Shown: positions 9,738-52,452, counted from the first letter of the stretch. The stretch: DNA of 64,000 nt from Escherichia coli 042 (GCF_000027125.1 NC_017626.1), one strand, 5' to 3'. Program-made: numbers and translations. Notes: generated by a model from the sequence alone, not told the origin.

Positions 9738-9748
9738 TCGCCCCACTC

Positions 9749-12842: not shown

Positions 12843-12856
12843 TTAAAACACCTTTA

Positions 12857-12923: not shown

Positions 12924-12925
12924 CT

Positions 12926-13655: not shown

Positions 13656-13656
13656 T

Positions 13657-13785: not shown

Positions 13786-13814
13786 TAAGCGAAACAGCAC
13801 CGCGAGGAATCAGT

Positions 13815-14431: not shown

Positions 14432-14600
14432 AAAGTGAATTTTGTGATGTGGTGAATGCGGCTGAGCGCACGCGGAACAGTTAAAACCAAAAACAGTGTT
14501 ATGGGTGGATTCTCTGTATCCGGCGTTAATTGTTAACTGGTTAACGTCACCTGGAGGCACCAGGCACTGCATCACAAAATTCATTGTTGAGGACGCGATA

Positions 14601-14977: not shown

Positions 14978-15069
14978 AACAGTTCCGTAATAAATATCCG
15001 GTTTCATTCTTATATGCCAGCAATGGCAGGGATTTGTTCATCCTTAAATCTGTCATGAGGTTAAAACAA

Positions 15070-17541: not shown

Positions 17542-17613
17542 TGTTCAACTGTCGCCGGTTGTGACTGGTATTCTGCAACCGGCGCTCGTCTGATGTAAGA
17601 GATAAAGAAATCG

Positions 17614-17865
17614 ATGAGCGAAGTAATCATGATTGTCTCTCCCGGCAAATGGGTATCCGAAGAGCAGTTAATTGCGCTGAAAGGAATAAAAAAAGGTACG
17701 TTAAAAAAGGCCCGAGAAAAATCGTTTATGGAAGGAAGGGAATATAAGTATGTCGCTCATGACGGTATGCCATGGGATAACAGTCCATGCTTTTACAACC
17801 TGGAAGAAATTGATCGCTGGATTGAGCGCCAGGCATCAGCGAGACCAAGACGTCATCTTACTTGA
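17614..17865 (+). CDS. Excisionase-like protein (83 aa)
   Basis: Small basic protein immediately upstream of the integrase. Sequence ..GKWVSEEQLIALKGIKKGTLKKAREKSFMEGREYKYV.. resembles lambda-type Xis. Confidence 0.55.
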   Translation: MSEVIMIVSPGKWVSEEQLIALKGIKKGTLKKAREKSFMEGREYKYVAHDGMPWDNSPCFYNLEEIDRWIERQASARPRRHLT

Positions 17866-17899
17866 CTAAAAGCCACACTAACTAATGAGAGAAGTTGAA

Positions 17900-19180
17900 A
17901 TGAAATATCCGACAGGCGTGGAAAACCATGGAGGGAAATTACGTATCTGGTTTGTTTATAAAGACGTAAGAGTCAGGGAAAATCTGGGGGTTCCTGACAC
18001 AGCAAAAAACAGGCGCGTTGCAGGTGAACTACGCTCCTCTGTTTGTTACGCAATAAAAACTGGTGTTTTCGACTATGCAAAACAGTTTCCCTCCTCACGC
18101 AATCTGGAAAAATTTGGTGAGGCCCGACAAGATTTAACCATAAAAGAACTGGCTGAAAAATTTCTGGCACTGAAAGAAACTGAAGTCGCCAAAACATCAC
18201 TCAACACATACCGTGCCGTCATCAAAAATATCCTGAGCATAATCGGTGAAAAAAATCTTGCCTCATCGATTAATAAAGAAAAATTACTGGAGGTTCGTAA
18301 AGAGTTACTGACTGGATACCAGATCCCCAAAAGTAACTATATTGTTACACAACCAGGGAGATCGGCTGTAACTGTAAATAATTACATGACAAATCTTAAC
18401 GCCGTGTTCCAGTTTGGTGTTGATAACGGTTACCTGGCAGATAATCCGTTTAAGGGGATCTCGCCATTAAAGGAATCAAGAACCATTCCGGATCCTCTTT
18501 CGCGGGAAGAATTTATCCGTCTTATCGATGCGTGCAGAAATCAGCAAGCAAAAAATTTATGGTGTGTTTCTGTTTATACTGGAGTTCGCCCTGGTGAGCT
18601 GTGTGCACTTGGATGGGAGGACATAGATCTGAAAAATGGAACAATGATGATCAGGAGAAATTTAGCAAAAGACCGTTTCACGGTACCAAAAACACAGGCG
18701 GGAACCAATCGGGTCATTCATCTTATTAAGCCAGCAATCGACGCTCTCCGGAGTCAGATGACATTAACGAGACTGAGCAAAGAGCATATCATTGATGTTC
18801 ACCTCAGAGAGTATGGCAGAACAGAAAAACAAAAATGCACCTTTGTTTTTCAACCTGAAGTGTCAGCGAGAGTAAAAAATTATGGTGACCATTTTACCGT
18901 TGACTCAATAAGGCAGATGTGGGACGCAGCGATAAAACGTGCCGGACTCCGCCATCGAAAATCATATCAGTCGAGACATACTTATGCCTGCTGGTCGCTG
19001 ACAGCTGGTGCTAACCCGGCATTTATAGCAAACCAGATGGGCCATGCAGATGCGCAAATGGTATTTCAGGTATACGGAAAATGGATGTCTGAAAACAATA
19101 ATGCACAGGTAGCTTTGTTAAATACACAGTTAAGCGAGTTTGCCCCAACCATGCCCCATAACGAAGCAATGAAAAATTAA
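17900..19180 (+). CDS. intQ: Lambda-family tyrosine integrase, apparently intact (426 aa from MKYPTGVENHGGKLRIWF)
   Basis: ORF 17885..19180 trimmed. Catalytic-region motifs GVRPGELCAL (R), HRKSYQSRHTYAC (H..R), GHADAQMVFQVYGKW (H..Y). Confidence 0.85.
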   Translation: MKYPTGVENHGGKLRIWFVYKDVRVRENLGVPDTAKNRRVAGELRSSVCYAIKTGVFDYAKQFPSSRNLEKFGEARQDLTIKELAEKFLALKETEVAKTSLNTYRAVIKNILSIIGEKNLASSINKEKLLEVRKELLTGYQIPKSNYIVTQPGRSAVTVNNYMTNLNAVFQFGVDNGYLADNPFKGISPLKESRTIPDPLSREEFIRLIDACRNQQAKNLWCVSVYTGVRPGELCALGWEDIDLKNGTMMIRRNLAKDRFTVPKTQAGTNRVIHLIKPAIDALRSQMTLTRLSKEHIIDVHLREYGRTEKQKCTFVFQPEVSARVKNYGDHFTVDSIRQMWDAAIKRAGLRHRKSYQSRHTYACWSLTAGANPAFIANQMGHADAQMVFQVYGKWMSENNNAQVALLNTQLSEFAPTMPHNEAMKN

Positions 19181-40383: not shown

Positions 40384-40530
40384 ATGGCAAAGCCGATCAT
40401 CACGCTCAATGGCCTAAAAATCGTCATTATGTTGGGAATGCTGGTCATTATTCTCTGCGGTATCCGTTTTGCCGCCGAGATCATCGTGCCGTTTATTCTC
40501 GCATTATTTATTGCTGTTATATATAACTAA
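40384..40530 (+). pseudogene. tqsA: tqsA (AI-2 exporter, ydgG) 5' fragment: 46 native codons then 2 element-derived codons and TAA
   Basis: ATG 40384. [46 protein letters not shown] then YN-stop. The reading frame resumes at 51547. Confidence 0.9.
40512..40520 (+). repeat. attL core (TGCTGTTAT; flanking similarity ...TAAC)
   Basis: ATTGCTGTTATaTaTAAC at the left junction versus AATGCTGTTATtCtTAAC at the right junction. Confidence 0.8.
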
Positions 40531-40594
40531 TTTCACTTAACGCATTGATTTAATTAAATGATTTGCACTACAAAAAGTGCCATAAATCGCAAAA

Positions 40595-40616
40595 TGACTA
40601 CACCAGTGACTACACC
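40595..40616 (+). repeat. Tandem TGACTACACC x2 (arm-type integrase site candidate), left arm
   Basis: TGACTACACCAGTGACTACACC is identical to 51396-51417. Similarity continues for ~35 more bp (..TCGgTGCAC.., ..ACAACGTGgAACA..). Confidence 0.6.
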
Positions 40617-40934
40617 GTTCGGTGCACTGTATGAAACAACGTGGAACAAATAGACACAAGAAATATACAGGCGGGTCATCTTTCCAGGGGGAAGCGCGCT
40701 AATTCATGAGGGGCGTTAATGTTGATATGGGGATCCCCATAACGGGGCTACCGGATTTTTTTTCCGGTTAACTGTTAATCAGGCTGGTGGGCTTTACCTG
40801 TTTTGTAGGAGTGGTCATTATGACCATTCAGACAATGACCTTAATCAGAACTTTTCGCTAAAAAATGACGTTGGTCACGTCGTCCGGAAAGCACAAAATC
40901 CCGTCAATTTTTAATTAACGGTTAAACCGTCTTT

Positions 40935-40980
40935 TGTCACGGCGTGTCACTGGTTGTCACTCTCCGTCACGGTATGTCGC
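40935..40980 (+). repeat. Five TGTCAC-type hexamers at exact 10-bp phasing
   Basis: TGTCAC 40935, TGTCAC 40945, TGTCAC 40955, CGTCAC 40965, TGTCGC 40975. Lies directly 3' of the 93-aa gene. Confidence 0.7.
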
Positions 40981-40986
40981 TACTCG

Positions 40987-41268
40987 TTAACGCCGTAACC
41001 GCTCCGGCTTCTTCCAGTGGTACGTAATTTTCTCCGTTTCCCGATACAGTGCCACGCGGCGATTGTAGGCCAGCATTTCAAGAACGCGGATCCGTATGTT
41101 GCGCATATCCACATCATTAAGCTGGATACCATCACGGCGCATCACCTCAGCAACCACACGCGCGTAATTTTCGGCGGTCACGCTGTCCGGCTGCGTGGCC
41201 TGTTCGTCATGCTGCTGGCTGATTCCGGTAACGCGGCGGATTAATCCCAGTAGTTCGGCTTCTGTCAT
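40987..41268 (-). CDS. Hypothetical island protein (93 aa)
   Basis: ORF 40987..41466 trimmed to ATG 41268 behind a GGGGG RBS. The upstream part of the long ORF is just translation of the cos repeat. MTEAELLGLIRRVTGISQQHDEQATQPDSVTAENYARVVAEVMRRDGIQLNDVDMRNIRIRVLEMLAYNRRVALYRETEKITYHWKKPERLRR. Confidence 0.55.
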   Translation of the reverse strand: MTEAELLGLIRRVTGISQQHDEQATQPDSVTAENYARVVAEVMRRDGIQLNDVDMRNIRIRVLEMLAYNRRVALYRETEKITYHWKKPERLRR

Positions 41269-41301
41269 TGTGCCCCCATCGCTCTGATAGTCTGGTGTCG
41301 T

Positions 41302-41365
41302 CGGGTCCTTCCTGGAATTATGGCCCGTTACGGGGCGGCGACCTCGCGCGTTTTCACTATTTATG
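41302..41365 (+). other. Lambda-type cos site, copy 1 (cosN GGGCGGCGACCT at 41333-41344)
   Basis: CGGGTCCTTCCTGGAATTATGGCCCGTTACG|GGGCGGCGACCT|CGCGCGTTTTCACTATTTATG. This closely matches the recalled lambda right end ..GTTACG, the 12-nt cohesive end, and left-end nt 13-33. Confidence 0.8.
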
Positions 41366-41382
41366 AAAATTTTTCGGGATCC

Positions 41383-41479
41383 ATGTCCGGTTTCTCTGCA
41401 AGTTAACCATATGAAAAATATAAAAACATGCTTTCCATGAACCGGACATGCGCAAAAAACAGACACTAAAACCGGACAT
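41383..41479. promoter_or_regulatory. cosB-like array: three copies of ATGTCCGGTT (one forward, two inverted) around an AT-rich spacer
   Basis: ATGTCCGGTT 41383-41392; AACCGGACAT 41440-41449 and 41470-41479. AT-rich 41397-41430 sits between the first and second. Confidence 0.6.
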
Positions 41480-41547
41480 CGAACCAGTTAACCGAAAGTG
41501 TGCACAAATCACATGCATTGCTGCGAGTGATTAACAAGTTATCGGCT

Positions 41548-41982
41548 TTACTGTTCTGTATCGGCTGATTGCTCCATGCTGGCACGGCGAACGCTTATGG
41601 CATGACGCCACCCAGCCAGAAAGCCAGCCATTTTATTTCGTGCCTTGCTCACATCTTCCGGTGAATAGCCGTAAATCTGCAAACCTTCATCAAATCGATG
41701 TTCTGTTTCTTCACTGGAGTACTCGTCACGCTCAGATGAAAGCAGCCTGGCAAACATAATTTTTTCCAGCGCACTGGTTTCTACGTGATATCTGATGGTC
41801 TCAAGACGGCTTTTACCTGAAGACCAAAGCAATGTATGCCCGATGTGATAACCGCCAGACTTTCCGCGATCCGCATTAAGATACGGCATCCCCTGTTTGG
41901 TCCATGCGCGAATAGTGGTTCTGTTAACCTTGAAATGTTCAGCTATTTCCTGCTGACTTACAAAACAAGCTTTATCAATCAT
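41548..41982 (-). CDS. Nu1-like small-terminase-type DNA-binding protein (144 aa): N-terminal winged HTH, unrelated C-terminus
   Basis: FVSQQEIAEHFKVNRTTIRAWTKQGMPYL aligns by eye with lambda Nu1 VNKKQLADIFGASIRTIQNWQEQGMPVL. The gene starts ~70 bp from cos copy 2, as Nu1 follows cos in lambda. Confidence 0.7.
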   Translation of the reverse strand: MIDKACFVSQQEIAEHFKVNRTTIRAWTKQGMPYLNADRGKSGGYHIGHTLLWSSGKSRLETIRYHVETSALEKIMFARLLSSERDEYSSEETEHRFDEGLQIYGYSPEDVSKARNKMAGFLAGWRHAISVRRASMEQSADTEQ

Positions 41983-42050
41983 AATGTTACCTTAACTGCA
42001 TGGTTAAATATTAATCAAGTGGTGGTGGTGTCACCTTCACGGAAAAACGT

Positions 42051-42114
42051 CATAAATAGCGAAAACCCGCGAGGTCGCCGCCCCGTAACGGGCCATAATT
42101 CCAGGAAGGACCCG
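42051..42114 (-). other. Lambda-type cos site, copy 2, inverted (cosN complement AGGTCGCCGCCC at 42072-42083)
   Basis: The reverse complement is identical to copy 1 except 2 positions. Its CGCGGGTTTTCGCTATTTATGA matches the recalled lambda left end exactly. Confidence 0.8.
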
Positions 42115-42115
42115 T

Positions 42116-42138
42116 AAAAAAGCCGGATTTCTCCGGCC
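42116..42138 (-). terminator. Rho-independent terminator of the capsid operon
   Basis: Minus strand GCCGGA-GAAA-TCCGGC followed by TTTTTT. Same module at 44389-44410 and 44751-44773. Confidence 0.7.
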
Positions 42139-42143
42139 TTGTC

Positions 42144-42557
42144 TCAGATGTTTTTCAGTATGCGATCGATGTCGCCGTCATCGCCCTGGTTTCTGCCATC
42201 GTATGCCATGCCAGCTGATACGGCTTGCGGGCTGTGCATGTCCATAAAGTTTTCAAAGGCTGCGGTAAGTTCCGGCGCAACCTTCGGACGTTCCTGCTCT
42301 ATGGTCATGCTAAGGATGCTTTTAGCCGTACCAACATCGATACAAGGCACGTTTGCCATTGCACGCAACAGCGGCTGATAGTCTTTATGCTCATGAAGCG
42401 CCATAATCGCATCAGCGCGCGGCTTGTCCTGCTCTTCCAGTTTGTTTAGTTGATGTACGGCCTCATAGGTTGATAAACCTCTGTCAGCCATTGCCCGCGC
42501 TTCGACTTTAAATTTACTCGCCAGCGGTAGCGTCATGATGCTTTCATTCGTTGCCAT
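42144..42557 (-). CDS. Hypothetical island morphogenesis-operon protein (137 aa)
   Basis: Last gene of the capsid operon. MATNESIMTLPLASKFKVEARAMADRGLSTYEAVHQLNKLEEQDKPRADAIMALHEHKDY... No family recognised. Confidence 0.6.
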   Translation of the reverse strand: MATNESIMTLPLASKFKVEARAMADRGLSTYEAVHQLNKLEEQDKPRADAIMALHEHKDYQPLLRAMANVPCIDVGTAKSILSMTIEQERPKVAPELTAAFENFMDMHSPQAVSAGMAYDGRNQGDDGDIDRILKNI

Positions 42558-42569
42558 CGTTCCCCCTGC

Positions 42570-42905
42570 TTATCGGGCCAGCGGCTGAACGGATACGCCG
42601 GAACCCGCAAAGGCGGCGCATTTTTTCGCATCGGTGTCGACGCTCTCAGGCCAGTTAACGGCGGCAATATTGAATATCCCCGTCTTGTAACACTGTGCTG
42701 ATTTCTGCTTTGACGTGTCCACAGGGTACGAGGTCAGATAAACAGCCTTGCCAGATTCCTGACCATCCCACGGCTTAAACTCGCCATTGTCTGCCAGCAT
42801 CAGCGGGGTAAATTCCTGAATAACGCCAGCATCAGCGGCAAAATGTACCAACGTCGTGGATACCTGCTGACTGCCTGCAAATAACTCAATGTATGGAGTG
42901 TCCAT
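42570..42905 (-). CDS. Head decoration protein, lambda gpD family (111 aa)
   Basis: TPLMLADNGEFKPWDG..., YKTGIFNIAAVNWPE..., KKCAAFAGSGVSVQP parallel lambda gpD TPLMLDTSSRKLVAWDG, YKSGTFRYEDVLWPE, KKRTAFAGTAISIV (recalled). Confidence 0.8.
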   Translation of the reverse strand: MDTPYIELFAGSQQVSTTLVHFAADAGVIQEFTPLMLADNGEFKPWDGQESGKAVYLTSYPVDTSKQKSAQCYKTGIFNIAAVNWPESVDTDAKKCAAFAGSGVSVQPLAR

Positions 42906-42917
42906 AGAATCCCCCCG

Positions 42918-43973
42918 TTAACCAATTTTGACGGTAACAAATTTGCGAATATCTGCCGGTACCGGCTGCGGTGCACTGTGTGTCTGCACGTACTCAATCG
43001 CCGGATCGCCGTCCTCAATCCAGTTTTTCGGGTAAAACATGTTTTGTGTTGCGCCCGTTCTTACCGCTTCCTGATCCATTATCGCACCATAGGCCACCAG
43101 CCCTTTATTGTTGGTGTTACCCAGGACCAGCAAATCAGGCTCAAGGAAATATTTTTCGGTACCATCGCTGTCAGTGTATTTGCCGGAATAGACGATAAGG
43201 GCCAGATCACCAAGATAGCCTTTAAAGCTCACCACTTCGCCCAGGTTTTTACAGGCCAGTTCGGCGGCGGATTCTGAACCACGGGAAAGATCGTACAGCT
43301 CACGGAATTTTTTAAAGCTGCGTAATGTGCGCCATACCTCAGCGCCCATAATCATGACGTTTGCGGGGCAACCAGCCTGATCAGCATAAAGCTCGATGTC
43401 ATAGATTGGGTCGTGCATGTCTTTATCCTGCTCGGACCATTTTTTACCCTTGGCCTGCTCTATGATGCAGTTTTCCGGTATTTTCCAGTCGATTTCATAG
43501 CGTTCTATGCCTTCGCCCTCAATGATGTTTTTTCCGGTCGTTACCGCATTCACCGCCAGCCATTCCACGCGTGCCTTAATGGCGTTTATCTGGCGGCGCA
43601 TGTTGCCAGTAATCAGGCGCATACGGCGATAGGTAGGGTCGTTAAGCTGTGCCGGATCTTCTCCAGCCATGCGCATGATGGTTTTCGTTGGATCGATTTC
43701 GTGCTTTGGCTTCATGTAGCCAGGTTTGATTGTGCTGGTTTCGTACCCTTTATCGCGCTGAACCTGGCTACCCACCATAGGCGAACAAAACGCCGACATG
43801 GTGACTTCTTCAATGTCCAGGGTATCCAGCATGATGTTTTGCGTGCTGAATGTCGCCACGTTCGGGAAAAACAGCGTGGTAAACAGAGGGCTGAATTTAA
43901 AATCCGCAATATCCCCGCGATTCAGGTACATGAAAAGCTGGTTAGTGTTAAGTGCCGTTGCTTTGCCTGCCAT
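42918..43973 (-). CDS. Major capsid protein, lambda gpE family (351 aa)
   Basis: Blocks PGYMKPKHEIDP, DPTYRRMRLI, YSGKYTDSDG..KYFL, LVLGNTNNKGL.AYG, YPKNWIEDGDPA, SAP align with lambda gpE PGYVKPKHEVNP, DPAYRRRRII, YSGQYVENGVKKNFL, MVLGNTQARGLRTYG, YPKNWVTTGDPA, SAP (recalled). Confidence 0.9.
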   Translation of the reverse strand: MAGKATALNTNQLFMYLNRGDIADFKFSPLFTTLFFPNVATFSTQNIMLDTLDIEEVTMSAFCSPMVGSQVQRDKGYETSTIKPGYMKPKHEIDPTKTIMRMAGEDPAQLNDPTYRRMRLITGNMRRQINAIKARVEWLAVNAVTTGKNIIEGEGIERYEIDWKIPENCIIEQAKGKKWSEQDKDMHDPIYDIELYADQAGCPANVMIMGAEVWRTLRSFKKFRELYDLSRGSESAAELACKNLGEVVSFKGYLGDLALIVYSGKYTDSDGTEKYFLEPDLLVLGNTNNKGLVAYGAIMDQEAVRTGATQNMFYPKNWIEDGDPAIEYVQTHSAPQPVPADIRKFVTVKIG

Positions 43974-44179
43974 TATTCACCCCCATAATTTTTATGCATC
44001 CCAAGCGCCGCAAGTAAATAAGAGCGTACAAGTGAACCTATCGACGGCTCCGGCGTCATCAGCGGATCCAGTCCAGCCGCAACGCCAGCTTCATAGTTTT
44101 TTTTGTGGCGCTGCTTGAGCACCTCCACGATTTCGGGGCTTATGTACACCGAAACACCGCCTTTTTTCTCTTCAGCCAT
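43973..44179 (-). CDS. Hypothetical protein, first gene of the capsid operon (68 aa)
   Basis: ORF 43973..44212 trimmed to ATG 44179 (AGGAA RBS); TAATG overlap with the capsid gene. MAEEKKGGVSVYISPEIVEVLKQRHKKNYEAGVAAGLDPLMTPEPSIGSLVRSYLLAALGMHKNYGGE. Confidence 0.55.
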   Translation of the reverse strand: MAEEKKGGVSVYISPEIVEVLKQRHKKNYEAGVAAGLDPLMTPEPSIGSLVRSYLLAALGMHKNYGGE

Positions 44180-44235
44180 AGTAAGAAATTCCTCTTCGAC
44201 TAAAAAAATCATAACTGGATGTTTATCCAGTTATG

Positions 44236-44263
44236 ATTATAATCAGAATTGCATTTTATGCAA
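44236..44263 (-). promoter_or_regulatory. Sigma70-type promoter of the capsid operon (TTGCAT-16 nt-TATAAT)
   Basis: -35 at 44263..44258, -10 at 44241..44236 on the minus strand. The -35 lies inside the palindrome ATTGCAT-TTT-ATGCAAT (44248-44264). Confidence 0.5.
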
Positions 44264-44340
44264 TGATATTGAGTTATGTTGCAAATTATGAAATGATTAT
44301 CCCGATCACGAACGCCAGTGCATCCAAAAACCTCATATGC

Positions 44341-44382
44341 AAAAGCCCGATAAGAACCCTCTGACCTTATCGGGCTTTTTTT
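44341..44382. terminator. Bidirectional terminator hairpin
   Basis: AAAA-GCCCGATAAG-(11 nt)-CTTATCGGGC-TTTTTTT. Confidence 0.6.
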
Positions 44383-44388
44383 GGGCGC

Positions 44389-44410
44389 AAAAAAGCCGGA
44401 TTGCTCCGGC
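44389..44410 (-). terminator. Rho-independent terminator (copy of the GCCGGA..TCCGGC module) after the 74-aa gene
   Basis: Minus strand GCCGGAGCAATCCGGC + TTTTTT. Confidence 0.65.
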
Positions 44411-44430
44411 TATGTGTGCTGTGTGCTGGC

Positions 44431-44655
44431 TCAGTCTCTGATCTCTTTCAGAAATTCTATCAATGCATCTATCTGTTCAGGATTTACCGCCAGCATTTCA
44501 CCGGATAGAGCACATCTCACAAAACCATGCTGATCCTTTTCAATCAGTGCGCCCGTCTCCAGGAATGCGCGGTAATCATTGATGCTCATCGTCTCCATGT
44601 TGTCAGCATGGTATTTATCACGCTGTTTTAATATCTCATCAAATTTCATCGGCAT
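44431..44655 (-). CDS. Hypothetical island protein (74 aa), stand-alone cassette between two terminators
   Basis: GAGGA RBS. MPMKFDEILKQRDKYHADNMETMSINDYRAFLETGALIEKDQHGFVRCALSGEMLAVNPEQIDALIEFLKEIRD. Confidence 0.55.
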   Translation of the reverse strand: MPMKFDEILKQRDKYHADNMETMSINDYRAFLETGALIEKDQHGFVRCALSGEMLAVNPEQIDALIEFLKEIRD

Positions 44656-44750
44656 TGTTTTTTTCCTCTGTTGTGTCTGTTTGTTTCAGATAGTAACTAT
44701 GCCTGACCGTGACGAAAACCCGGTAATGCGCCATACCGTTTCAACTGGTG

Positions 44751-44773
44751 CAAAAAAAGCCGGATTTCTCCGG
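44751..44773 (-). terminator. Rho-independent terminator after the PerC-like gene
   Basis: Minus strand GCCGGAGAAATCCGGC + TTTTTTT. Confidence 0.7.
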
Positions 44774-44781
44774 CTGTTTGA

Positions 44782-45054
44782 TTAGCTGTCCTGGTAATTG
44801 CGCCATATTTCATCACCAGCACCATCTATACCCATTTCGGCATAAGTGCGATCGACTGCCTTTTTCAGGTCTCCGAAATTATCCGGCGGCTCCGGTGCCC
44901 TCTGTGCCTTCCTTGAACATTCCAGCCGTCGCATCGTGATGTGATGCCGTTCCTTGTCTGTCTCCACCAGCTGCATGACTTCACCCCATCGCGCCGCCGC
45001 CCTCCGGTAAAAGCCTTTCGCCTCCAGTTCCTCCGCTATGCGGTCATGTACCAT
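44782..45054 (-). CDS. PerC/Pch-family transcriptional activator (90 aa)
   Basis: ORF 44782..45174 trimmed to ATG 45054 behind GAGGGGG. MVHDRIAEELEAKGFYRRAAARWGEVMQLVETDKERHHITMRRLEC... parallels the PerC/Pch core ..LEEAGLWRRAATRWL.V....TDEERDWI.RRR..C (recalled). Confidence 0.7.
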   Translation of the reverse strand: MVHDRIAEELEAKGFYRRAAARWGEVMQLVETDKERHHITMRRLECSRKAQRAPEPPDNFGDLKKAVDRTYAEMGIDGAGDEIWRNYQDS

Positions 45055-45064
45055 CGTCACCCCC

Positions 45065-45475
45065 TCAGAACGAAATATCATCACCGTAAGGGTCATCGCC
45101 TCCCGCTGGTGGCTGATTACCCTGTGTGCCTGTGGTTTTGCGTCTGTTCCCGCCTGGACGTGCCGCGCGGGCACTGATTACGCTGTCTGCGATAACCTGC
45201 CAGCCCTGCCGCGTTTCTCCGTTCTGTCCGGTCCACTGGCTTACCTGCATCGTGCCGGATACGCTGGCAACATCGCCTTTTTGATGTTTAGCCAGGAAGT
45301 CGGCCTGTTTGCCAAATGCGATGACCGATAACCATAACGTCGCCTGTCCGTCCTGTGCCTGGCTGCATGGCAAAGATACCGCCATACGCGCCAGCGTCAT
45401 CGGTGTGCCCTTGCTGGTCTGTTTTACCTGCGGGTCGTCCACCAGCCGCCCGTAAGCGGCTATCTGTGCCGTCAT
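45065..45475 (-). CDS. ssb: Single-stranded DNA-binding protein (OB fold, Gly/Pro-rich linker, acidic tip DDISF)
   Basis: MTAQIAAYGRLVDDPQVKQTSKGTPMTLARMAV...GNQPPAGGDDPYGDDISF. The C-terminal tip resembles the SSB DDDIPF client-binding tail. Confidence 0.75.
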   Translation of the reverse strand: MTAQIAAYGRLVDDPQVKQTSKGTPMTLARMAVSLPCSQAQDGQATLWLSVIAFGKQADFLAKHQKGDVASVSGTMQVSQWTGQNGETRQGWQVIADSVISARAARPGGNRRKTTGTQGNQPPAGGDDPYGDDISF

Positions 45476-45723
45476 AATTCCACCTCTCCGGTTTTAACGT
45501 TGATGGTTGTTACCTGTTCCGCTTCGGCAATCTCCCGTTCTGTCAGCGTGGCAAAGTTTGCCGCCGCCGTGGTCATGAATGCGCTTATCAGGTCGGGATG
45601 TTCCTTCGCGTATCCTTCCCGCGTGTGGCGGTCTATCGTTCTGATTGCCACCTTTAAGGTGTGCTCAGTCATGTCTAACGCTTTATATTTTGGCTCTGTT
45701 CTGTCTCTGCGTTTTTGGGTCAT
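45472..45723 (-). CDS. Hypothetical island protein (83 aa; start uncertain)
   Basis: ORF 45472..45753 trimmed to ATG 45723 (GAGAGG RBS). ATGA-type overlap with the ssb start. Confidence 0.45.
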   Translation of the reverse strand: MTQKRRDRTEPKYKALDMTEHTLKVAIRTIDRHTREGYAKEHPDLISAFMTTAAANFATLTEREIAEAEQVTTINVKTGEVEL

Positions 45724-45734
45724 TTCTCGCAACC

Positions 45735-45925
45735 TCTCACTTTTTCGCCTCACTTTTTCAAGCGTCTCACTTCGTCGCAGTTGGGATTTTCGGTTTTTCT
45801 ATGTGTGTGTTTCATAAGTATTTTTTTACCCCTCACTTTTGAGGATGTATACAGGTCGAAAAGTGAGGGAGAGCGGGCTAATTTTGGCCCTCTTTCTATC
45901 CCCCTCGCTTTTGCTCCTCACTTTT
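45735..45925. repeat. Iteron cluster CTCACTTTT (6 direct or near-direct copies plus 1 inverted): putative island replication origin
   Basis: Direct copies at 45736, 45749, 45766 (CTCACTTCG), 45832, 45904 (CTCGCTTTT), 45917. Inverted copy at 45858-45869. AT-rich stretch 45781-45830. Directly 3' of the rep gene. Confidence 0.65.
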
Positions 45926-47324
45926 ATAGCGGCGCTACATCATCCCCATCGATACGAATAACCCCATCTTTTTCCAGCTTGTACAGCCAGCGCCGGAAGT
46001 TTTTCATTTCATACCCCAGCTTTTTCATGTCATCACGTAACAGCGGGATCGTGCACTTGTCGCCGTTCTGTGTGCGTGAACGGATGCACCCCCATAGCGC
46101 GGTATGGTTTTCCGTCTTGTTCCCTGCCTCCTCGATGCGCTCCAGTTCAACAGGAGGGCGCGGATCATCCACCACCACCAGCGACGTGATTAATTCACCG
46201 TCAGCGTCGGTAAAAAGCTCCACCACGCGTAAGTCATATGCGGCTTCTTTGAGTTCCTCCGCGTCCTTCATTTTGGTGCATGAGATAACCAGCGCTTCGC
46301 TTCCTGCGTCCTCCCTGCGTATCCGGTATTCAGCATCCAGCGAAGCACGAAATGCACTGGAACCGCGCGCGCCTTTCGTCTCATCCTTGCCGGAATGGTG
46401 AACCACCAGCACCGTGGCCCCTGTGCGTCGTTTCAGTTCGTCACAACCACGGATAAACGCCCCCATATCACGGGAATCATTTTCATCATTCCCACCAAAG
46501 CAACGCGCCAGCGTATCCAGAATAATCATGCGTACAGGTTTACCCGTTTCCCGCTCCACCTGACGGGCAGCGATAACCATTTCATCAACATCAAGCGGGG
46601 CAGCCGGAAAGATGGGGCGGTTTACCAGATACAGATTTTTCACCTGCTCATCGTGCACAACCTCCCAGGCTTTTACACGACGCGGAACACCTATACCGCC
46701 TTCACCAACCACATAGAGAACCGCACCATGTGCAACCCTGCGGCCTCCCCACTGGCGACCAGTGGCAACATGGCACGCCCACGATCCAGCAAGGAATGAT
46801 TTATAGGACCCGCTAGCCCCGTATATGCTGCATAGCGATACCGCCGGAATAATCCCCTTAACCACGTAATCCAGTTGCGTGTCGTATCCGGTAGATCCAA
46901 CGCTCATCGGTAGCGTGGTTTTTCGCTGGTGTTTTTTTTCTTCCGCCGGCTCTTTCCCGCGCACCCGTTCCAGGTATTCGCGCCAGTTCTCCCGCATATG
47001 GCTGTGCATCCCTTCGGGGTAATAATTCGCATCAGTTACACCCGCCGCCGCCAGCTTGTGCGCAATGGCATTAATATTTGATGGCCTGATGTGGCCTGCC
47101 TTGTACAGCCGGACACAATAGCGCCCCTCGTCGATGATTCTCAGGTCTGCCAGTTCATCCAGTTGATCATCAGCCAGCACAACGGGAGGCACATTATCGC
47201 CAGCCAGTCGCCCGTCCTGTTCCTGCCACTGTTTCGCATGTGCCCAGGCATCACTACCCGCAAAAATAATGACTTCGGTCATCTTGTCGTAAGGCTGTTT
47301 TTTTAAGTTCGGTGCGCTTTTCAT
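45924..47324 (-). CDS. Replication initiator ATPase (RecA/RepA-like AAA_25-type core, C-terminal wHTH), 466 aa
   Basis: Walker A GASGSYKS, Walker B MIILDTLARCFGG, VLVVHHSGKDETKGARGSSA sensor region. C-terminal basic wHTH-like tail. Confidence 0.8.
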   Translation of the reverse strand: MKSAPNLKKQPYDKMTEVIIFAGSDAWAHAKQWQEQDGRLAGDNVPPVVLADDQLDELADLRIIDEGRYCVRLYKAGHIRPSNINAIAHKLAAAGVTDANYYPEGMHSHMRENWREYLERVRGKEPAEEKKHQRKTTLPMSVGSTGYDTQLDYVVKGIIPAVSLCSIYGASGSYKSFLAGSWACHVATGRQWGGRRVAHGAVLYVVGEGGIGVPRRVKAWEVVHDEQVKNLYLVNRPIFPAAPLDVDEMVIAARQVERETGKPVRMIILDTLARCFGGNDENDSRDMGAFIRGCDELKRRTGATVLVVHHSGKDETKGARGSSAFRASLDAEYRIRREDAGSEALVISCTKMKDAEELKEAAYDLRVVELFTDADGELITSLVVVDDPRPPVELERIEEAGNKTENHTALWGCIRSRTQNGDKCTIPLLRDDMKKLGYEMKNFRRWLYKLEKDGVIRIDGDDVAPL

Positions 47325-47620
47325 TTCTTGCCCCTGAATCCGTTAACCATGGTTTTCAGCTTCTGGATGTTTGCCCGTGCCCTGGCGTTGCTGGTGGGCA
47401 CGTTATGCGGCGCGGTCTGTACCAGAGAAAAATCACGCCGGAACTGATAAACAGGCATCACGCAATCATATTCGTAACCTTCACGGCGGTAGGTTACGCG
47501 CCGTTCTTCCACGTCCTTAATCATTACCGTGCCGCCGTACTGGTCGCGGTAAATATCACCGCGCGTAAATTTAGGGTGAGTGTTGCCACTGGCAGTTAAG
47601 CCAGAATATTTAAGTTTCAT
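47321..47620 (-). CDS. DUF4222-like small protein (99 aa)
   Basis: ..GDIYRDQYGGTVMIKDVEERRVTYRREGYEYDCVMPVYQFRRDFSLV resembles the DUF4222 pattern as I recall it. ATGA overlap with rep. Confidence 0.5.
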   Translation of the reverse strand: MKLKYSGLTASGNTHPKFTRGDIYRDQYGGTVMIKDVEERRVTYRREGYEYDCVMPVYQFRRDFSLVQTAPHNVPTSNARARANIQKLKTMVNGFRGKK

Positions 47621-47625
47621 TATTT

Positions 47626-47859
47626 TTATTCTCCGGTGTGCTGTTCTTTATATCTGTCGTGCAATAGATCTATTTCTTGCAGTTCCATTATTACAGGCTC
47701 AAGAAGCGTTATTAATGCTGTGGCAATTCTTGATTTTTGTTTGTCGCGTTCATTGTCGCCAAGTGTTTCAAGCCATATGCGCAATATTTCCATCATGTTT
47801 TCACTGTGAGAAAGTGCAAGAAATGCGCGGTCTATTGTTTGGTGGTAAATATCACGCAT
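47626..47859 (-). CDS. Hypothetical island protein (77 aa)
   Basis: MRDIYHQTIDRAFLALSHSENMMEILRIWLETLGDNERDKQKSRIATALITLLEPVIMELQEIDLLHDRYKEQHTGE; helical, overlaps the upstream gene by 8 nt. Confidence 0.5.
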   Translation of the reverse strand: MRDIYHQTIDRAFLALSHSENMMEILRIWLETLGDNERDKQKSRIATALITLLEPVIMELQEIDLLHDRYKEQHTGE

Positions 47860-48319
47860 GGCTTACATCCTCAGGAAATTTTCTTCTATAACGCGCCTCT
47901 GCCACATATTCCGCATAATCGGCGGCGATATTCAGTACATCAAGCCCCGTTGATTTATATTCTCTCGTGGAAAGTAAGAAAAAAGCCGCTCTAATAAGTT
48001 CTGGCATTGACGAAAGCGCATCAGCCGCATCATCAGGAACGCCGGAAAATTCCTGTTTCAGGGAATTAAAACGATCATCACGCATAACCCCCCCCCCATT
48101 TTCACAATCAGCAATCAGGATAGCTTTGGCCTCATTCAGCGCCGTATCAGCACTAAATTGCATGACAGCCAGTGAGTGAGGAACGAAAGCACCGGCATAT
48201 TCTGTTTCGCTGGTGGCGTGCTTATGTGCCCTGTCCGCGATAACAGAAATATCAATCAGCGCGTGCATCAGCGTTTTGATGGCTTCGGCGGCTGCGTCCG
48301 GTGTGGTTTTATTGTGCAT
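47852..48319 (-). CDS. Hypothetical island protein (155 aa)
   Basis: MHNKTTPDAAAEAIKTLMHALIDISVIADRAHKHATSETEYAGAFVPHSLAVMQF... No family recognised; part of the tightly packed early operon. Confidence 0.55.
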   Translation of the reverse strand: MHNKTTPDAAAEAIKTLMHALIDISVIADRAHKHATSETEYAGAFVPHSLAVMQFSADTALNEAKAILIADCENGGGVMRDDRFNSLKQEFSGVPDDAADALSSMPELIRAAFFLLSTREYKSTGLDVLNIAADYAEYVAEARYRRKFPEDVSHA

Positions 48320-48521
48320 AAAGCATCCCCTGAATATTCGTGTTAATCATTCCGGCACGTTTTGTGATTTCCTGTAATGATTCCCTTGTGGCGACAATTG
48401 CTTCATCTGGTAAGTGGTAATTACACACCACGCGACCTTTATCCACATTGACCAGTAGCTGCCCTGTGAATTTCTCACGAAACTGAATGCGGTTAAGGTC
48501 AGTAAGTGACAGATTAATCAT
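48309..48521 (-). CDS. Hypothetical island protein (70 aa)
   Basis: ORF 48309..48563 trimmed to ATG 48521 behind AGGAGG. MINLSLTDLNRIQFREKFTGQLLVNVDKGRVVCNYHLPDEAIVATRESLQEITKRAGMINTNIQGMLYAQ. Confidence 0.5.
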   Translation of the reverse strand: MINLSLTDLNRIQFREKFTGQLLVNVDKGRVVCNYHLPDEAIVATRESLQEITKRAGMINTNIQGMLYAQ

Positions 48522-48711
48522 GGCGCACCTCCTGACGAATACGGGCGGCAAATACAGCAACACAACCGGACGGGCAACGGTTACGCGCTTCGCGTTCCGT
48601 CCAGGCGGTTACGTGGATGATTTGAGATTCTCCGGCACTCAGTGCCAGAAAACGCCACACAAAGGCCGTTTGTGTGTGTACAAGGTGTGGTATATGATTT
48701 ACAGCAACCAT
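48514..48711 (-). CDS. Small protein resembling Icd-like host cell-division inhibitors of P4-type elements (65 aa); tentative
   Basis: ORF 48514..48786 trimmed to ATG 48711 behind AGGAG. ..FVWRFLALSAGESQIIHVTAWTEREARNRCPSGCVAVFAARI fits my recollection of the F.W.F.A....V.A..E.EAR......FAAR pattern. Confidence 0.4.
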   Translation of the reverse strand: MVAVNHIPHLVHTQTAFVWRFLALSAGESQIIHVTAWTEREARNRCPSGCVAVFAARIRQEVRHD

Positions 48712-48784
48712 AACGGCTCCTAGTTTACGTTGTTGGTTAGAAGCCCTGCGAGTGGTAACGACACTTGCGGGGCTTTGTCTTTTC
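48703..48784 (+). ncRNA. Candidate ~80-nt antisense RNA across the RBS/start of the first early gene
   Basis: Extended -10 TGgTATATG (48688-48696) upstream. Then a 14-bp stem (48741-48754 / 48762-48775, two G-U pairs only on the plus-strand RNA) followed by TGTCTTTTC. Confidence 0.3.
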
Positions 48785-48802
48785 ATCGATTACCTTGATA
48801 AA

Positions 48803-48884
48803 GGTGTCAGCCACTATATTAGTAACGGGTGTCAGCCACGTCAATAGTGTTTTTCCGTTTTCTTGTGTGTATACTGTCAGCCAC
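48803..48884. promoter_or_regulatory. Divergent switch region: three GTCAGCCAC operators interleaved with face-to-face promoters
   Basis: GGTGTCAGCCAC at 48803-48814 and 48828-48839; CTGTCAGCCAC at 48874-48884. Minus-strand promoter TTGACG (48844..48839)-17 nt-TAATAT (48821..48816). Plus-strand TATACT at 48870-48875. Confidence 0.6.
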
Positions 48885-48905
48885 CTAATAACGAGGAAAT
48901 CAGAT

Positions 48906-49085
48906 ATGGCAACAAAAGCAGTTAATGCAAAATCCAAAAAGCTTGAGGCTCGAGTACCACACGCAATAGCTGATGCTGTAGAAAATTTAAAGGAAGATGG
49001 CGAAAGTACAGGGCAATTTATCGTTTCGGCACTTGAAGGCGAGATCAAACGCCGCCAGCGCCGCAAGGCCAAAGAATCAGAATAA
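48906..49085 (+). CDS. Ribbon-helix-helix-like small DNA-binding protein (59 aa): candidate island repressor
   Basis: ORF 48765..49085 trimmed to ATG 48906 behind AGGAA. MATKAVNAKSKKLEARVPHAIADAVENLKEDGESTGQFIVSALEGEIKRRQRRKAKESE has a beta-strand/helix/helix pattern typical of Arc/CopG proteins. Confidence 0.55.
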   Translation: MATKAVNAKSKKLEARVPHAIADAVENLKEDGESTGQFIVSALEGEIKRRQRRKAKESE

Positions 49086-49127
49086 TCACTATCAGCGCCG
49101 TGGTGTGAGGTATTACGGCGCATTGCT

Positions 49128-49316
49128 ATGCAGGACAACACAATGACCGATAAAGAATTGACCAAAACATTATCACCGGCACGGAAAAGACGGCGCAGAA
49201 AGATAGAGCATGAATCAGAAAGATTCGCACCATGTGCTTTTGCCCTTGAGCAATTCCTTAAAGAGTACAGGGAAAAGCGCTCATTGCAGGTATGGCAACG
49301 AACTGAACCAGACTGA
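49128..49316 (+). CDS. Possible second small gene of the plus-strand unit (62 aa, basic)
   Basis: ORF-track MQDNTMTDKELTKTLSPARKRRRRKIEHESERFAPCAFALEQFLKEYREKRSLQVWQRTEPD. Weak RBS, so may instead be non-coding. Confidence 0.3.
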   Translation: MQDNTMTDKELTKTLSPARKRRRRKIEHESERFAPCAFALEQFLKEYREKRSLQVWQRTEPD

Positions 49317-49411
49317 TTGCATTGCCCACCAGCCTGATAGCGGCTATCATCCCCGTGCTTATGTTTGGGATCACACACACAAACGGCGCAGCGGGTTATC
49401 TGTTCAGAAAG

Positions 49412-49439
49412 GCGGCTCCATTTCGGGGCCGCTTTTTTT
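49412..49439 (+). terminator. Rho-independent terminator of the plus-strand unit
   Basis: GCGGCTCC-ATTTC-GGGGCCGC followed by TTTTTTT. Confidence 0.65.
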
Positions 49440-49585
49440 ATACCTGAAAAACCCCAATTTTGTTGTTTTTCAGTTTCACCAGGGCGAACGAATCCCCGCC
49501 CACGTTCTGGCGTATATTCAATCTTCATGGTTATAGCTCTGTGTTCAGATGATTGATGTGTGGCGGCTGCGTGCCGCCAGCGTGA

Positions 49586-49774
49586 TTAATGAACTGCCTT
49601 GCAGCTATCCTTCCAGGCCAGAACCTCGGATAAAGACCAGCCAACGGAACGACCGCCAAGTTTACGACGTGATGGGAATTGTCCGGCCTTTTCCAGGCGG
49701 TAGCGACACGTACGGCTAAGGCCGGTTAGTTTTTCGCATTCTTTTTCACGTATAAACCGATCAGTGCTTAACAC
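49586..49774 (-). CDS. alpA: AlpA-family HTH regulator/excisionase (62 aa, GTG start)
   Basis: Strong GGGGGGG RBS. ..DRFIREKECEKLTGLSRTCRYRLEKAGQFPSRRKLGGRSVGWSLSEVLAWKD is the AlpA/MerR-like HTH signature. Confidence 0.85.
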   Translation of the reverse strand: MLSTDRFIREKECEKLTGLSRTCRYRLEKAGQFPSRRKLGGRSVGWSLSEVLAWKDSCKAVH

Positions 49775-50107
49775 TATTGCCCCCCCTTTCGTTTCTTAAA
49801 GAGTCATCAGGTGTCTTATTGTGTCGTATTGTTCCCGCTAGAGTGATGAATGGCAAATATTGAGGATGTATGATTTACAGAAAATGAAACAGTAAGAATA
49901 AAATCTTTTAAATTCATGTTAATACAAAGGCATAAAATATTGTTTCATGCCTTTTTTCTCGCTCTTTAAAGAGTGATTCGCTAGTGTATAAAAAACCAGT
50001 GACACATTAAAAATCAGCCACTTATAAATCTGTATGCTTTTTCGCCTCTTGTTCGTGGTTGTTCCACATTGTTGCTCATTGTTGCACGTTGTATCTGTTC
50101 GCATATA

Positions 50108-50123
50108 CAGTATGCGCATACTG
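50108..50123. promoter_or_regulatory. Perfect 16-bp palindrome CAGTATGCGCATACTG just 3' of int
   Basis: No loop, so more likely a protein-binding site than an RNA hairpin. Adjacent ATTGTTGC direct repeats at 50068-50087. Confidence 0.4.
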
Positions 50124-50140
50124 AAAAAACACGAAAAAAA

Positions 50141-51370
50141 TTATTTTCTTCTGGCTACTGGTAGCGTGGTTACGTTTTCATGTGTTCCCGCCAGTATCCC
50201 TAACCGCTCCGTCCACATATCCAGCGCATTGCGTTTAGCATCCAGATAACGGGAATGATTATAAACTCGCTGCATTCCTGGCATCTGGTGGCCTGTAAGC
50301 TGCTCCACGACATGCGGATCAACGCCTAAATCGTTCAGCATGGTTGTAAAGGTGCGCCGGATGTCATGCAGTGACCAGTGAGGATGATTAAGCCTCCTGT
50401 GCGCTAATCTTCCATACTGCGATACGCTGGCCTCCTGTTTCACTTCCCCCAGCAATAAGCCCGTGTGCCTGTTCTGCTCCACCAGCTGCGTGACGAACGG
50501 CAGGATCGCTTCCGGTATGGGCCGGAATATTGCGACCTTCGTTTTGCTGTGCTCCTTCGGAACGGTCCATAGCATTTCCGTAAAATCCCACTCCCCGATC
50601 TCCGATAACCTCAGTTCTACCGTTCTGGCTCCGAAGACAATCAGGAGGCGGATTAACGCGACGTAGTAAGGGGAGAATATTTTTTTGTCCAGTGCCTGCA
50701 ATAATTCGCCAAGTTCTTTGTTACTTAAGACACGTTCGCTTATATCCGGTTTTTTCCCAACGTCCGCCACGTTCAGATCGTCCAGAACGTTGCTGATTGC
50801 ATAGCGCCGCCTACGGCAGAACTTAAGCGCCTGTTTGCACGCCTGTAGCACGAATCCGGCAGTAACAGGCGTTCGCTTTGCCACCTGGTCAAAACAGGCC
50901 AGCCAGTGCCGTAGCTCGCATTTATCCAGCGGCATAGCACCAATCTGCTGTATTACGTGATTATTAAGTCGCCTTTTCAGGGCGATATAATCCACGCGGT
51001 TTTCCTTTACGTAATACTCAAGCCAGTAGGTGAGCGCATCGCCAACCGTTACCGGCTTTAACGCTTCCTGTACGGTGTAATTAAGCTCATGACGTGGATT
51101 TTTCCCCTCTGCCAGCCATGCGCGACACTGGGCGGCTTTTTCCCTGGCTGATTTCAGGCTCAGATCAGGATAACTTCCCAGCTTAATGCGTTCGGGTCGT
51201 GTCTCCCTTCCCGTTCCGGCCCTGTATGTGAAATACCAGGTCAATTTCCCTGATGTTAAATATTTCACGCTCAGGTTTCCGCCATCACTATAAAACGTGT
51301 TTTTCTCCGCTGGCTTACCATGAAGTTTCCTTAGCAAGGTATCGCTCAGTTTGTTCATTGCTCTGCTCAC
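50141..51370 (-). CDS. int: P4-type tyrosine integrase (DUF4102 arm-binding N-terminus), 409 aa, GTG start behind GAGGGGG
   Basis: N-terminus ..LSDTLLRKLHGKPAEKNTFYSDGGNLSVKYLTSGKLTWYFTYR... Catalytic ARTVELRLSE (R), HDIRRTFTT (H..R), GHQMPGMQRVYNHSRY (H..Y). Confidence 0.9.
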   Translation of the reverse strand: MSRAMNKLSDTLLRKLHGKPAEKNTFYSDGGNLSVKYLTSGKLTWYFTYRAGTGRETRPERIKLGSYPDLSLKSAREKAAQCRAWLAEGKNPRHELNYTVQEALKPVTVGDALTYWLEYYVKENRVDYIALKRRLNNHVIQQIGAMPLDKCELRHWLACFDQVAKRTPVTAGFVLQACKQALKFCRRRRYAISNVLDDLNVADVGKKPDISERVLSNKELGELLQALDKKIFSPYYVALIRLLIVFGARTVELRLSEIGEWDFTEMLWTVPKEHSKTKVAIFRPIPEAILPFVTQLVEQNRHTGLLLGEVKQEASVSQYGRLAHRRLNHPHWSLHDIRRTFTTMLNDLGVDPHVVEQLTGHQMPGMQRVYNHSRYLDAKRNALDMWTERLGILAGTHENVTTLPVARRK

Positions 51371-51395
51371 GTTTTACCCCCTCTTTACGAAAAAG

Positions 51396-51417
51396 TGACT
51401 ACACCAGTGACTACACC
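51396..51417 (+). repeat. Tandem TGACTACACC x2 (arm-type site candidate), right arm, just upstream of int
   Basis: Identical to 40595-40616. Confidence 0.6.
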
Positions 51418-51545
51418 GATCGTTGCACAAAGGGCTACAACGTGAAACAAGCTGGAACAAGGAAAATCACAAATCTGTTGATAATCAAAAACATAATGCA
51501 CAGCCTGAAACATTATGAAACAGCAAAAAACACCAAATGATAAAA

Positions 51546-51554
51546 TGCTGTTAT
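51546..51554 (+). repeat. attR core (TGCTGTTAT)
   Basis: Direct repeat of 40512-40520. The tqsA reading frame resumes as [14 protein letters not shown]. Confidence 0.8.
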
Positions 51555-52452
51555 TCTTAACCCGCTGGTGCAACACATGGTCCGCTGGCGAGTGCCGCGT
51601 GTACTGGCGGTGTCGATTTTGATGACCATCATCGTGATGGCGATGGTGTTGCTGTTAGCTTATCTGGGTTCCGCGCTCAACGAGTTGACGCGGACGTTAC
51701 CGCAATATCGCAACTCTATTATGACGCCGCTGCAAGCGATTGAACCGTTGTTGCAACGCGTAGGGATTGATGTCTCAGTTGACCAACTGGCGCATTACAT
51801 TGATCCGAACGCGGCGATGACGTTGCTCACCAACTTATTGACGCAGTTATCTAATGCCATGTCATCAATATTTTTATTGCTGCTGACGGTGCTGTTTATG
51901 CTGCTCGAAGTGCCACAATTGCCCGGAAAATTTCAGCAAATGATGGCGCGTCCGGTTGAAGGGATGGCGGCGATTCAGCGTGCGATTGACAGTGTTTCTC
52001 ATTATCTGGTGCTGAAAACAGCCATCAGCATCATCACCGGCCTGGTCGCCTGGGCGATGCTCGCCGCACTCGATGTTCGCTTCGCTTTTGTCTGGGGATT
52101 GCTGGCCTTTGCGCTTAATTACATCCCTAATATTGGTTCAGTTCTCGCAGCAATTCCCCCTATCGCTCAGGTACTGGTGTTTAATGGCTTCTACGAAGCG
52201 TTGTTGGTGCTGGCGGGATATCTGCTGATTAATCTGGTCTTCGGCAATATTCTGGAGCCGCGCATCATGGGACGTGGGCTGGGGCTTTCGACATTGGTGG
52301 TATTTTTGTCGTTGATTTTTTGGGGATGGTTGTTAGGACCGGTGGGTATGCTGCTTTCCGTGCCGTTGACAATTATTGTCAAAATTGCGCTTGAACAAAC
52401 AGCGGGAGGTCAAAGCATCGCCGTTCTGTTAAGCGATCTCAATAAAGAGTGA
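51547..52452 (+). pseudogene. tqsA: tqsA 3' portion (codons ~44-344), separated from its start by the island
   Basis: Frame GCT GTT ATT CTT AAC CCG CTG GTG... = [30 protein letters not shown]... through LSDLNKE-stop. Confidence 0.9.

Follow-up and report, generated by a model that had tools for sequence, protein, structure and literature searches.

The island that splits tqsA in Escherichia coli 042 matches EcCI042, an EcCICFT073-type classical phage-inducible chromosomal island of Gram-negative bacteria

What kind of mobile element interrupts tqsA in Escherichia coli 042? In a stretch of 64,000 nucleotides from this genome (GCF_000027125.1 NC_017626.1; hereafter the window, with positions counted from its first letter), the gene for the exporter TqsA is split by an island that carries its own integrase. 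The original prediction, made from the sequence alone, took this island to be a phage satellite with the architecture of a phage-inducible chromosomal island (PICI), but with a cargo that pointed to a possibly undescribed lineage. Our analysis supports the architecture, in that the components of a classical PICI are present, and overturns the novelty. With high confidence, the island is EcCI042, a classical Gram-negative PICI of the EcCICFT073 type, which inserted at tqsA codons 44-46 with the tyrosine integrase that it encodes. Published work already covers the element and its family, as well as how it is packaged and the fact that it integrates into tqsA (PMC6092414, PMC6739421, PMC7192596).

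The boundaries of the island are exact and the tqsA site is used recurrently, because the join left by excision matches natural empty sites and the junctions recur in other genomes. The island measures 11,034 bp, as predicted, and is bounded by a 9-bp direct repeat, TGCTGTTAT. The left copy (attL core, 40512-40520) lies inside tqsA codons 44-46, and the right copy (attR core, 51546-51554) stands 11,034 bp away, where tqsA resumes in frame. The 5' fragment of the gene (40384-40530, plus strand) retains 46 native codons followed by two foreign codons and a stop (YN-stop), and the 3' fragment (51555-52452, plus strand) is without an in-frame start codon of its own at the junction. In other occupied genomes PGAP annotates the equivalent 5' fragment as an incomplete pseudogene, and in related genomes the 3' fragment is labeled "missing N-terminus." Joining 40520 to 51555 in silico yields an intact 344-aa TqsA, and over its 547 nt this joined sequence agrees fully (100% identity) with the uninterrupted tqsA of other E. 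coli, so precise excision is plausible. A search for the element at tqsA in complete E. coli genomes, which had been proposed as a check, found the empty site in 5171 of 5426 and the two occupied junctions in 241 and 246; ~4.5% carry an element at tqsA.

The identity of the island follows from a published catalogue. Fillol-Salom et al. 2018 (ISME J) list EcCI042 of E. coli 042 in Tables S1 and S3 at FN554766.1 1832521-1843554, which is 11,034 bp, and their Table S1 entry gives the att core as ATAACAGCA, the att gene as tqsA, and the accessory genes as rgdR and perC (PMC6092414). The published core is the reverse complement of the island repeat TGCTGTTAT, and the length, att core, target gene, and accessory genes of the island all agree with the listing, which identifies it as that element. 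The proteins point the same way: the integrase, in its 405-aa form (ATG at 51358), exactly matches CBG34596.1, "prophage integrase [Escherichia coli 042]," and the published EC042_1767 integrase is likewise 405 aa; RepA exactly matches CBG34588.1 of E. coli 042, and an identical RepA was found on six contigs only. No difference from EcCI042 was detected in this comparison of descriptors and exact proteins. EcCI042 has served as one of three representative Gram-negative PICIs, and EcCICFT073 and EcCI042 are said to correspond to O-island 51 (OI-51) of O157:H7 (PMC6092414). A second element, EcCIK1516, is catalogued at the tqsA site (PMC6092414), and tqsA is listed independently among the genes interrupted by integrative elements in the TIGER study (PMC7192596).

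Does the gene content bear out the assignment to the classical PICIs? SatelliteFinder defines PICIs by five components (PMC10085698), and we judged these from Pfam, PHROG, NCBIfam, and structure matches to that definition. An integrase is present at one end (50141-51370) and an AlpA-type regulator adjoins it; a replicase module, in the form of a RepA-family AAA_25 initiator, is followed by an iteron origin; and there are both a capsid morphogenesis gene (Phage_cap_E) and a small-terminase-like packaging redirector, an Rpp homologue with a TerS-like DNA-binding domain. The components that the definition forbids (tail, holin, portal, and head-tail connectors) were not found among the island genes in Pfam, PHROG, and NCBIfam scans, and the same scans found no portal, protease, TerL, sid/psu/delta, or P4 alpha, in agreement with the prediction. 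Pfam also confirmed the predicted content of int, alpA, a RepA-like ATPase, SSB, PerC, capsid, and decoration genes. PADLOC found no defense genes in the island, and Rpp, the c1501 homologue, and RgdR are not represented among the NCBIfam models. The features of Rpp-dependent cos PICIs of the type described in PMC6739421 are present as well, namely, an rpp gene, lambda-like cosQ/cosN with a non-lambda cosB, and two cos sites flanking rpp. In every feature that sequence can test, then, the island is a classical Rpp-type PICI.

Two other satellite classes share parts of this plan. Capsid-forming PICIs (cfPICIs) of the EcCIEDL933 type have the same int-alpA-rep backbone but carry an HK97 capsid, protease, portal, connectors, HNH, TerS, and TerL; this class was rejected for the island, in which Pfam and PHROG detected no HK97 capsid, prohead protease, portal, connectors, HNH, or TerL, and whose capsid is of the lambda E type. 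P4-like satellites share a P4-family integrase, an AlpA/Vis-like regulator, an Icd-like gene, a size of ~11 kb, and packaging via the helper's cos. They too were rejected, as psu-delta-sid, epsilon, and the alpha primase-helicase were not detected by Pfam, PHROG, or NCBIfam and the cos sites are of the lambda type, not that of P2.

The predicted departure of the cargo from the classical PICI set did not survive comparison with EcCICFT073, the prototype classical Gram-negative PICI, which is helped by lambda, phi80, and a prophage resident in CFT073. The island agrees with the EcCICFT073 set in each gene and in their order: int, alpA, an Icd-like gene with other small early genes, rgdR, rep, ori, ssb, perC, capsid, decoration, c1501, cos1, rppA, cos2, and a last gene. 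In EcCICFT073 a hypothetical gene stands between rep and ssb, and a small gene stands between perC and the major capsid gene. The integrases are 91.4% identical, and the packaging module (40986-44423) is 95.5% identical in DNA. Every gene thus belongs to a satellite family that had been defined before with this gene set, the outcome that the original prediction itself had named as its refutation. Capsid genes of the lambda E/D type together with a Nu1-like gene and paired cos sites are the hallmark of the E. coli subfamily of classical PICIs rather than foreign cargo. The two elements differ in their sites, EcCICFT073 lying in CFT073 between roxA and phoQ, where it integrates in the ycfD(roxA)-phoQ intergenic region with core GGACATATTT, whereas the island lies in tqsA. 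They differ also in rep, which is a primase-type Pri-Rep in EcCICFT073 and a RepA-type helicase with AAAGTGAGG iterons in the island, and in perC, for which EcCICFT073 has an allele with 75% identity to the island PerC. A 74-aa gene is extra in the island and has no match in EcCICFT073 (CFT073 sequence).

The likeness is seen part by part at the packaging end, where all genes are on the minus strand. The capsid operon opens with a small gene (43973-44212; phrog_3255, E 1.6e-54), which the annotations of all related elements also place upstream of the capsid gene. It is followed by the major capsid gene of the lambda E type, a c1499 homologue (42918-43973; PF03864, Phage_cap_E, E 5.5e-50; 96.6% identity to EcCICFT073), the head decoration gene of the lambda D type, a c1500 homologue (42570-42905; PF02924, E 5e-18; 98.2% identity), and a 137-aa c1501 homologue (42144-42557; phrog_1999, E 1.3e-65; 95.6% identity to its EcCICFT073 counterpart). 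The c1501 homologue also gives a weak match (E 5.8e-9) to positions 496-567 of 583 of the phrog_53 head maturation protease, a region that is the Nu3/scaffold-like C-terminal part of lambda gpC; the island thus carries E-, D-, and, more weakly, Nu3-like genes. Next comes rppA (41548-41982), whose 144-aa product, the redirecting phage packaging protein, is 98.6% identical to EcCICFT073 c1503/RppA and matches the RppC structure (PDB 6HLK/6HN7) with E 4.5e-31. The description of this gene as Nu1-like stands insofar as the protein matches lambda Nu1 weakly, with a weak helix-turn-helix and Nu1 DNA-binding-domain likeness, but its actual identity is RppA, a protein of known structure and mechanism (PMC6739421). 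The last small gene (40987-41268; 93 aa; phrog_1561, E 1.4e-56) is 91.8% identical to the last EcCICFT073 gene.

Flanking rppA are two inverted lambda-like cos sites (41302-41379, plus strand; 42037-42114, minus strand) of 78 nt that are 91% complementary, and these were assigned with the published EcCICFT073 cos1 and cos2 sequences. The site on the minus strand is cos1 (cosQ and cosN, 42037-42114), with AGGTCGCCGCCC (plus strand) at 42072-42083; it reads into rppA, and a PICI-specific cosB is situated between cosN and the rppA 5' end. Identity to EcCICFT073 cos1 is 151/158, with all mismatches on the cosQ side and cosN, cosB, and the rppA start unchanged, and identity to a lambda-like phage cos is 94% over 50 nt. 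The plus-strand site, cos2, consists of cosQ, cosN, and a cosB-like region (41302-41479), has its 12-nt end GGGCGGCGACCT at 41333-41344, and has three CCGGACAT elements in the cosB-like region (41383-41390, inverted; 41442-41449; 41472-41479); the cos2 region is identical to EcCICFT073 cos2 at 261/261 positions. The 12-nt cosN is that of lambda at both sites, the likeness to lambda ends after ~45 nt, and megablast against phages gave matches at the cos sites only. The predicted dependence on lambda-type cos phages is supported to the extent that the element is built for packaging by them, with a lambda-type cosN at both sites.

The remaining genes complete a part-by-part annotation of EcCI042, which includes the assignment of rgdR as well as that of cos1 and cos2; all but one pair are on the minus strand. 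The tyrosine integrase (50141-51370; PF13356 and PF00589) has 409 aa when read from GTG; the E. coli 042 annotation starts it at the ATG at 51358, which gives 405 aa. It adjoins alpA (49586-49774; PF05930, E 5e-17), the activator of the PICI cycle, 91.9% identical to EcCICFT073 AlpA. A divergent plus-strand pair (48906-49316; NF041551, E 1.1e-16; phrog_949, phrog_21027) consists of a YlcI/YnfO-family gene, which comes first, and a 62-aa gene. A mechanically called open reading frame of 263 aa (48737-49528, minus strand) overlaps this pair on the opposite strand; in related genomes the region is annotated as a hypothetical protein or an Icd-like pseudogene, and the coding strand is annotated inconsistently. 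Small early-operon genes follow at 47626-48786 (PHROG matches), with an Icd-like gene at the promoter-proximal end (NF033153, E 1e-17). Directly upstream of rep is the gene for a DUF4222 protein (47321-47620; PF13973) of 99 aa, with RGD at residues 20-22 and 99% identity to the O157 copy. Its length, motif, and position agree with those of ECs1581/C1493 (PMC3378721), and judged by these it is the accessory regulator RgdR.

The replication initiator, a RepA-family helicase (AAA_25; 45924-47324; PF13481, E 2.3e-43), is 99.6% identical to the O157 copy. Its likeness to the EcCICFT073 Pri-Rep is confined to the first 122 aa, and Pfam found no primase domain in it; E. coli PICIs have alternative rep alleles, of which this is one, seen also in OI-51 and EcCIRM12579. 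Directly downstream of rep lies the replication origin (45741-45925, minus strand), made up of two AAAGTGAGG-type iteron sets around an AT-rich stretch, a layout that agrees with PICI origins as described (PMC6092414 Fig. 2 legend). Beyond it are the gene for a single-stranded DNA-binding protein (45065-45475; PF00436; 97.8% identity to EcCICFT073), the accessory PerC-family regulator (44782-45054; PF06069, E 1.2e-42; 100% identity to the O157 copy), and the 74-aa gene (44431-44655; phrog_1957), which the OI-51 element of O157 shares at 100% identity. The perC unit and the 74-aa gene each end in a hairpin terminator that reads AGCCGGAG(A/C)AATCCGGCT and then a T run, and a third copy of the AGCCGGAG(A/C)AATCCGGCT repeat is located after the capsid operon.

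How would such an element move? We infer each functional step for EcCI042 itself by homology to EcCICFT073. A lytic lambdoid helper would turn on alpA, AlpA would activate the leftward operon, and Int would excise the island and restore tqsA. The RepA-type initiator would replicate the circle from the iteron origin into concatemers, and RppA would pair with the helper Nu1 in a hybrid that loses recognition of the phage cosB and gains that of island cos1. Helper TerL would then cut the lambda-identical cosN, sending island DNA into full-size helper capsids while packaging of the helper would be blocked, and rgdR and perC would act as accessory regulators.

The prototype supplies the experimental background for most of this scheme. 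In EcCICFT073 it is the helper phage, not the SOS response, that induces alpA, and AlpA activates the island operon; AlpA overexpression alone leads to excision and replication, and transfer needs int, alpA, and pri (PMC6092414). Deletion of the capsid or the decoration gene alters neither transfer nor interference, the packaged DNA is phage-sized, cos1 is required for transfer by lambda and phi80, and the phage TerS is required too (PMC6092414; for cos1 also PMC6739421). The RppA-TerS hybrid loses affinity for the phage cosB and gains affinity for the cosB of cos1, so that helper packaging is blocked and island packaging promoted (PMC6739421). The same packaging route is very likely for EcCI042, because RppA and both cos sites are essentially unchanged relative to EcCICFT073.

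Some points weigh against reading the island as EcCI042 and as a mobile element of the EcCICFT073 kind. The match to FN554766.1 was established via proteins and published descriptors, not by direct nucleotide comparison. The rep gene encodes a RepA-type helicase with different iterons, not the Pri-Rep that was tested in EcCICFT073. Moreover, when resident prophages of strain 042 carrying a cat-marked EcCI042 were induced with mitomycin C, <1 transductant was obtained (PMC6092414 Table 1). This trial is the only published experiment on EcCI042, and lambda and phi80 are not reported as its helpers (PMC6092414), which leaves mobilization of EcCI042 as a candidate property by homology to EcCICFT073. 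That the marked island was not transferred from strain 042 would also be expected of an immobile, domesticated remnant, kept for regulation by rgdR/perC or for the inactivation of tqsA, and a resident OI-51 does affect expression of the enterocyte effacement locus (LEE) and colonization (PMC3378721). Even so, we regard domestication as unlikely. A lack of suitable helpers in strain 042 explains the failed transfer equally well, all core genes are intact open reading frames, and both att cores are perfect. Further, cos2 and the functional side of cos1 are identical to sites with experimentally shown activity, RppA is 98.6% identical to an active RppA, and the mosaic elements found at tqsA in ~4.5% of genomes indicate ongoing mobility.

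The lambda-type capsid, decoration, and cos sequences could alternatively be fragments retained, with Nu1, by a decayed lambdoid prophage, much as O157 OI-51 was first annotated as a 14.93-kb cryptic prophage, CP-933C (PMC3378721). This is very improbable given that a compact, unidirectional int-alpA-rep-ori-packaging order is kept in hundreds of genomes at dedicated att sites, that DNA likeness to phages is confined to the cos sites, that the Nu1-like gene is an Rpp and not a truncated Nu1, and that the family has been shown to be mobilized by helpers (PMC6092414). As for the undescribed satellite lineage originally proposed, whose novel cargo would be head genes of the lambda E/D type with a Nu1-like gene and duplicated cos, the gene set is indeed unlike those of cfPICIs (EcCIEDL933) and P4, and rep is unlike that of EcCICFT073. 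However, EcCICFT073 has a counterpart of every cargo gene at 92-99% identity and with the order unchanged, the RepA-type rep was known already from the E. coli PICIs OI-51 and EcCIRM12579, and Table S1 of PMC6092414 lists the island by name, site, core, and size. We see practically no chance that the lineage is new.

Elements of the O-island 51/CP-933C/EcCIRM12579 type in E. coli O157:H7 and O55:H7 share with the island a core (42042-48783) that is 99.5% identical and extends from the capsid operon to the early genes, with RepA, rgdR, perC, and ssb among them. The O157 element differs in sitting between phoQ and roxA and in an Int that is 92% identical to that of the island; where the island encodes the 144-aa RppA, it has a 180-aa "terminase small subunit" allele. 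Between the tqsA Int and the phoQ/roxA Int of the O157 element (locus L001, 12280-13509), 33/409 residues differ, and 18 of these fall within residues 1-66, the arm-binding domain. Near both ends of the island are tandem repeats, TGACTACACC x2 at 40595-40616 (plus strand; left end) and again at 51396-51417 (plus strand; adjoining the int start), which are candidate integrase arm-type sites of the two arms. The left pair lies within a 76-nt repeat (40591-40666) that is 76% identical to a copy at 51392-51467. EcCICFT073 has the same arrangement near its ends, with the variant TTAACTACACC instead; besides the integrases, the tandem 10-mers also differ, TGACTACACC in the tqsA island against TTAACTACACC in EcCICFT073. 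On their sequences alone, the tqsA and phoQ/roxA integrases are a compact natural example of integrase retargeting.

Elements at the tqsA site are mosaics. Strain CFSAN067215 has the same packaging end at tqsA with a primase-type rep, and the tqsA element of E. coli 14EC001 (locus L006, 1-5240) combines an int/alpA/RepA/ssb/perC backbone of 98% identity with a packaging module of the cfPICI kind. This module, which IS1 interrupts, comprises an HK97 capsid, protease, portal, and connectors along with HNH and a TerS of the P27 type; the arrangement shows that classical PICIs and capsid-forming ones swap modules at a single att site. The exact mosaic of the island was found end to end in no complete genome of the collection, which is expected because strain 042 is outside it. 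The best whole-island match covers 89% at 97.9% identity, the best right end is 98.0% identical, and the best left end 99.8%.

Why do these islands keep two cos sites? A 149-nt part of cos2 (41331-41479), which extends from cosN through the three CCGGACAT elements, shows 97.3% identity to the cos region that five lambdoid phages of the PhiR12 type (locus L007, 3001-3179) have directly upstream of Nu1, and the other phage records among the 50,697 searched match cos2 over the ~47-nt cosN core only. A literature search on PhiR12 phages found nothing relevant. An Rpp-independent entry for this group is suggested because cos2 has a full phage-type cosN and cosB. Tentatively, and with somewhat more doubt than conviction, the two cos sites may serve two groups of helpers, cos2, perhaps a borrowed site, letting PhiR12-type phages package the island directly without Rpp, and cos1, which may need the RppA-TerS hybrid, serving lambda and phi80. 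The match is a small lead on helper range that, if true, explains the retention of two sites.

The position of the island within tqsA also allows a second, weaker reading, in which helper-triggered excision would act as a switch that restores the AI-2 (autoinducer-2) exporter TqsA; tqsA has already been named as a candidate for excision-type regulation (PMC7192596). Inverted ACAACGTGGAACAA-like motifs occur in the int-alpA intergenic region (50047-50093) and near the island ends (40635-40661 and 51436-51460), and these may be binding sites for Int or AlpA.

Elsewhere in the window, positions 1-19180 hold part of a lambdoid (Rac/Qin-like) prophage that runs off the left end, its terminase and cos lying beyond the window. 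Within the window its minus strand encodes a Q antiterminator (2680-3462) and a DUF968 protein (3446-4534), and its plus strand a RecE-like exonuclease VIII (15034-17541) and an integrase (17885-19180), the last of which adjoins rspB/rspA.

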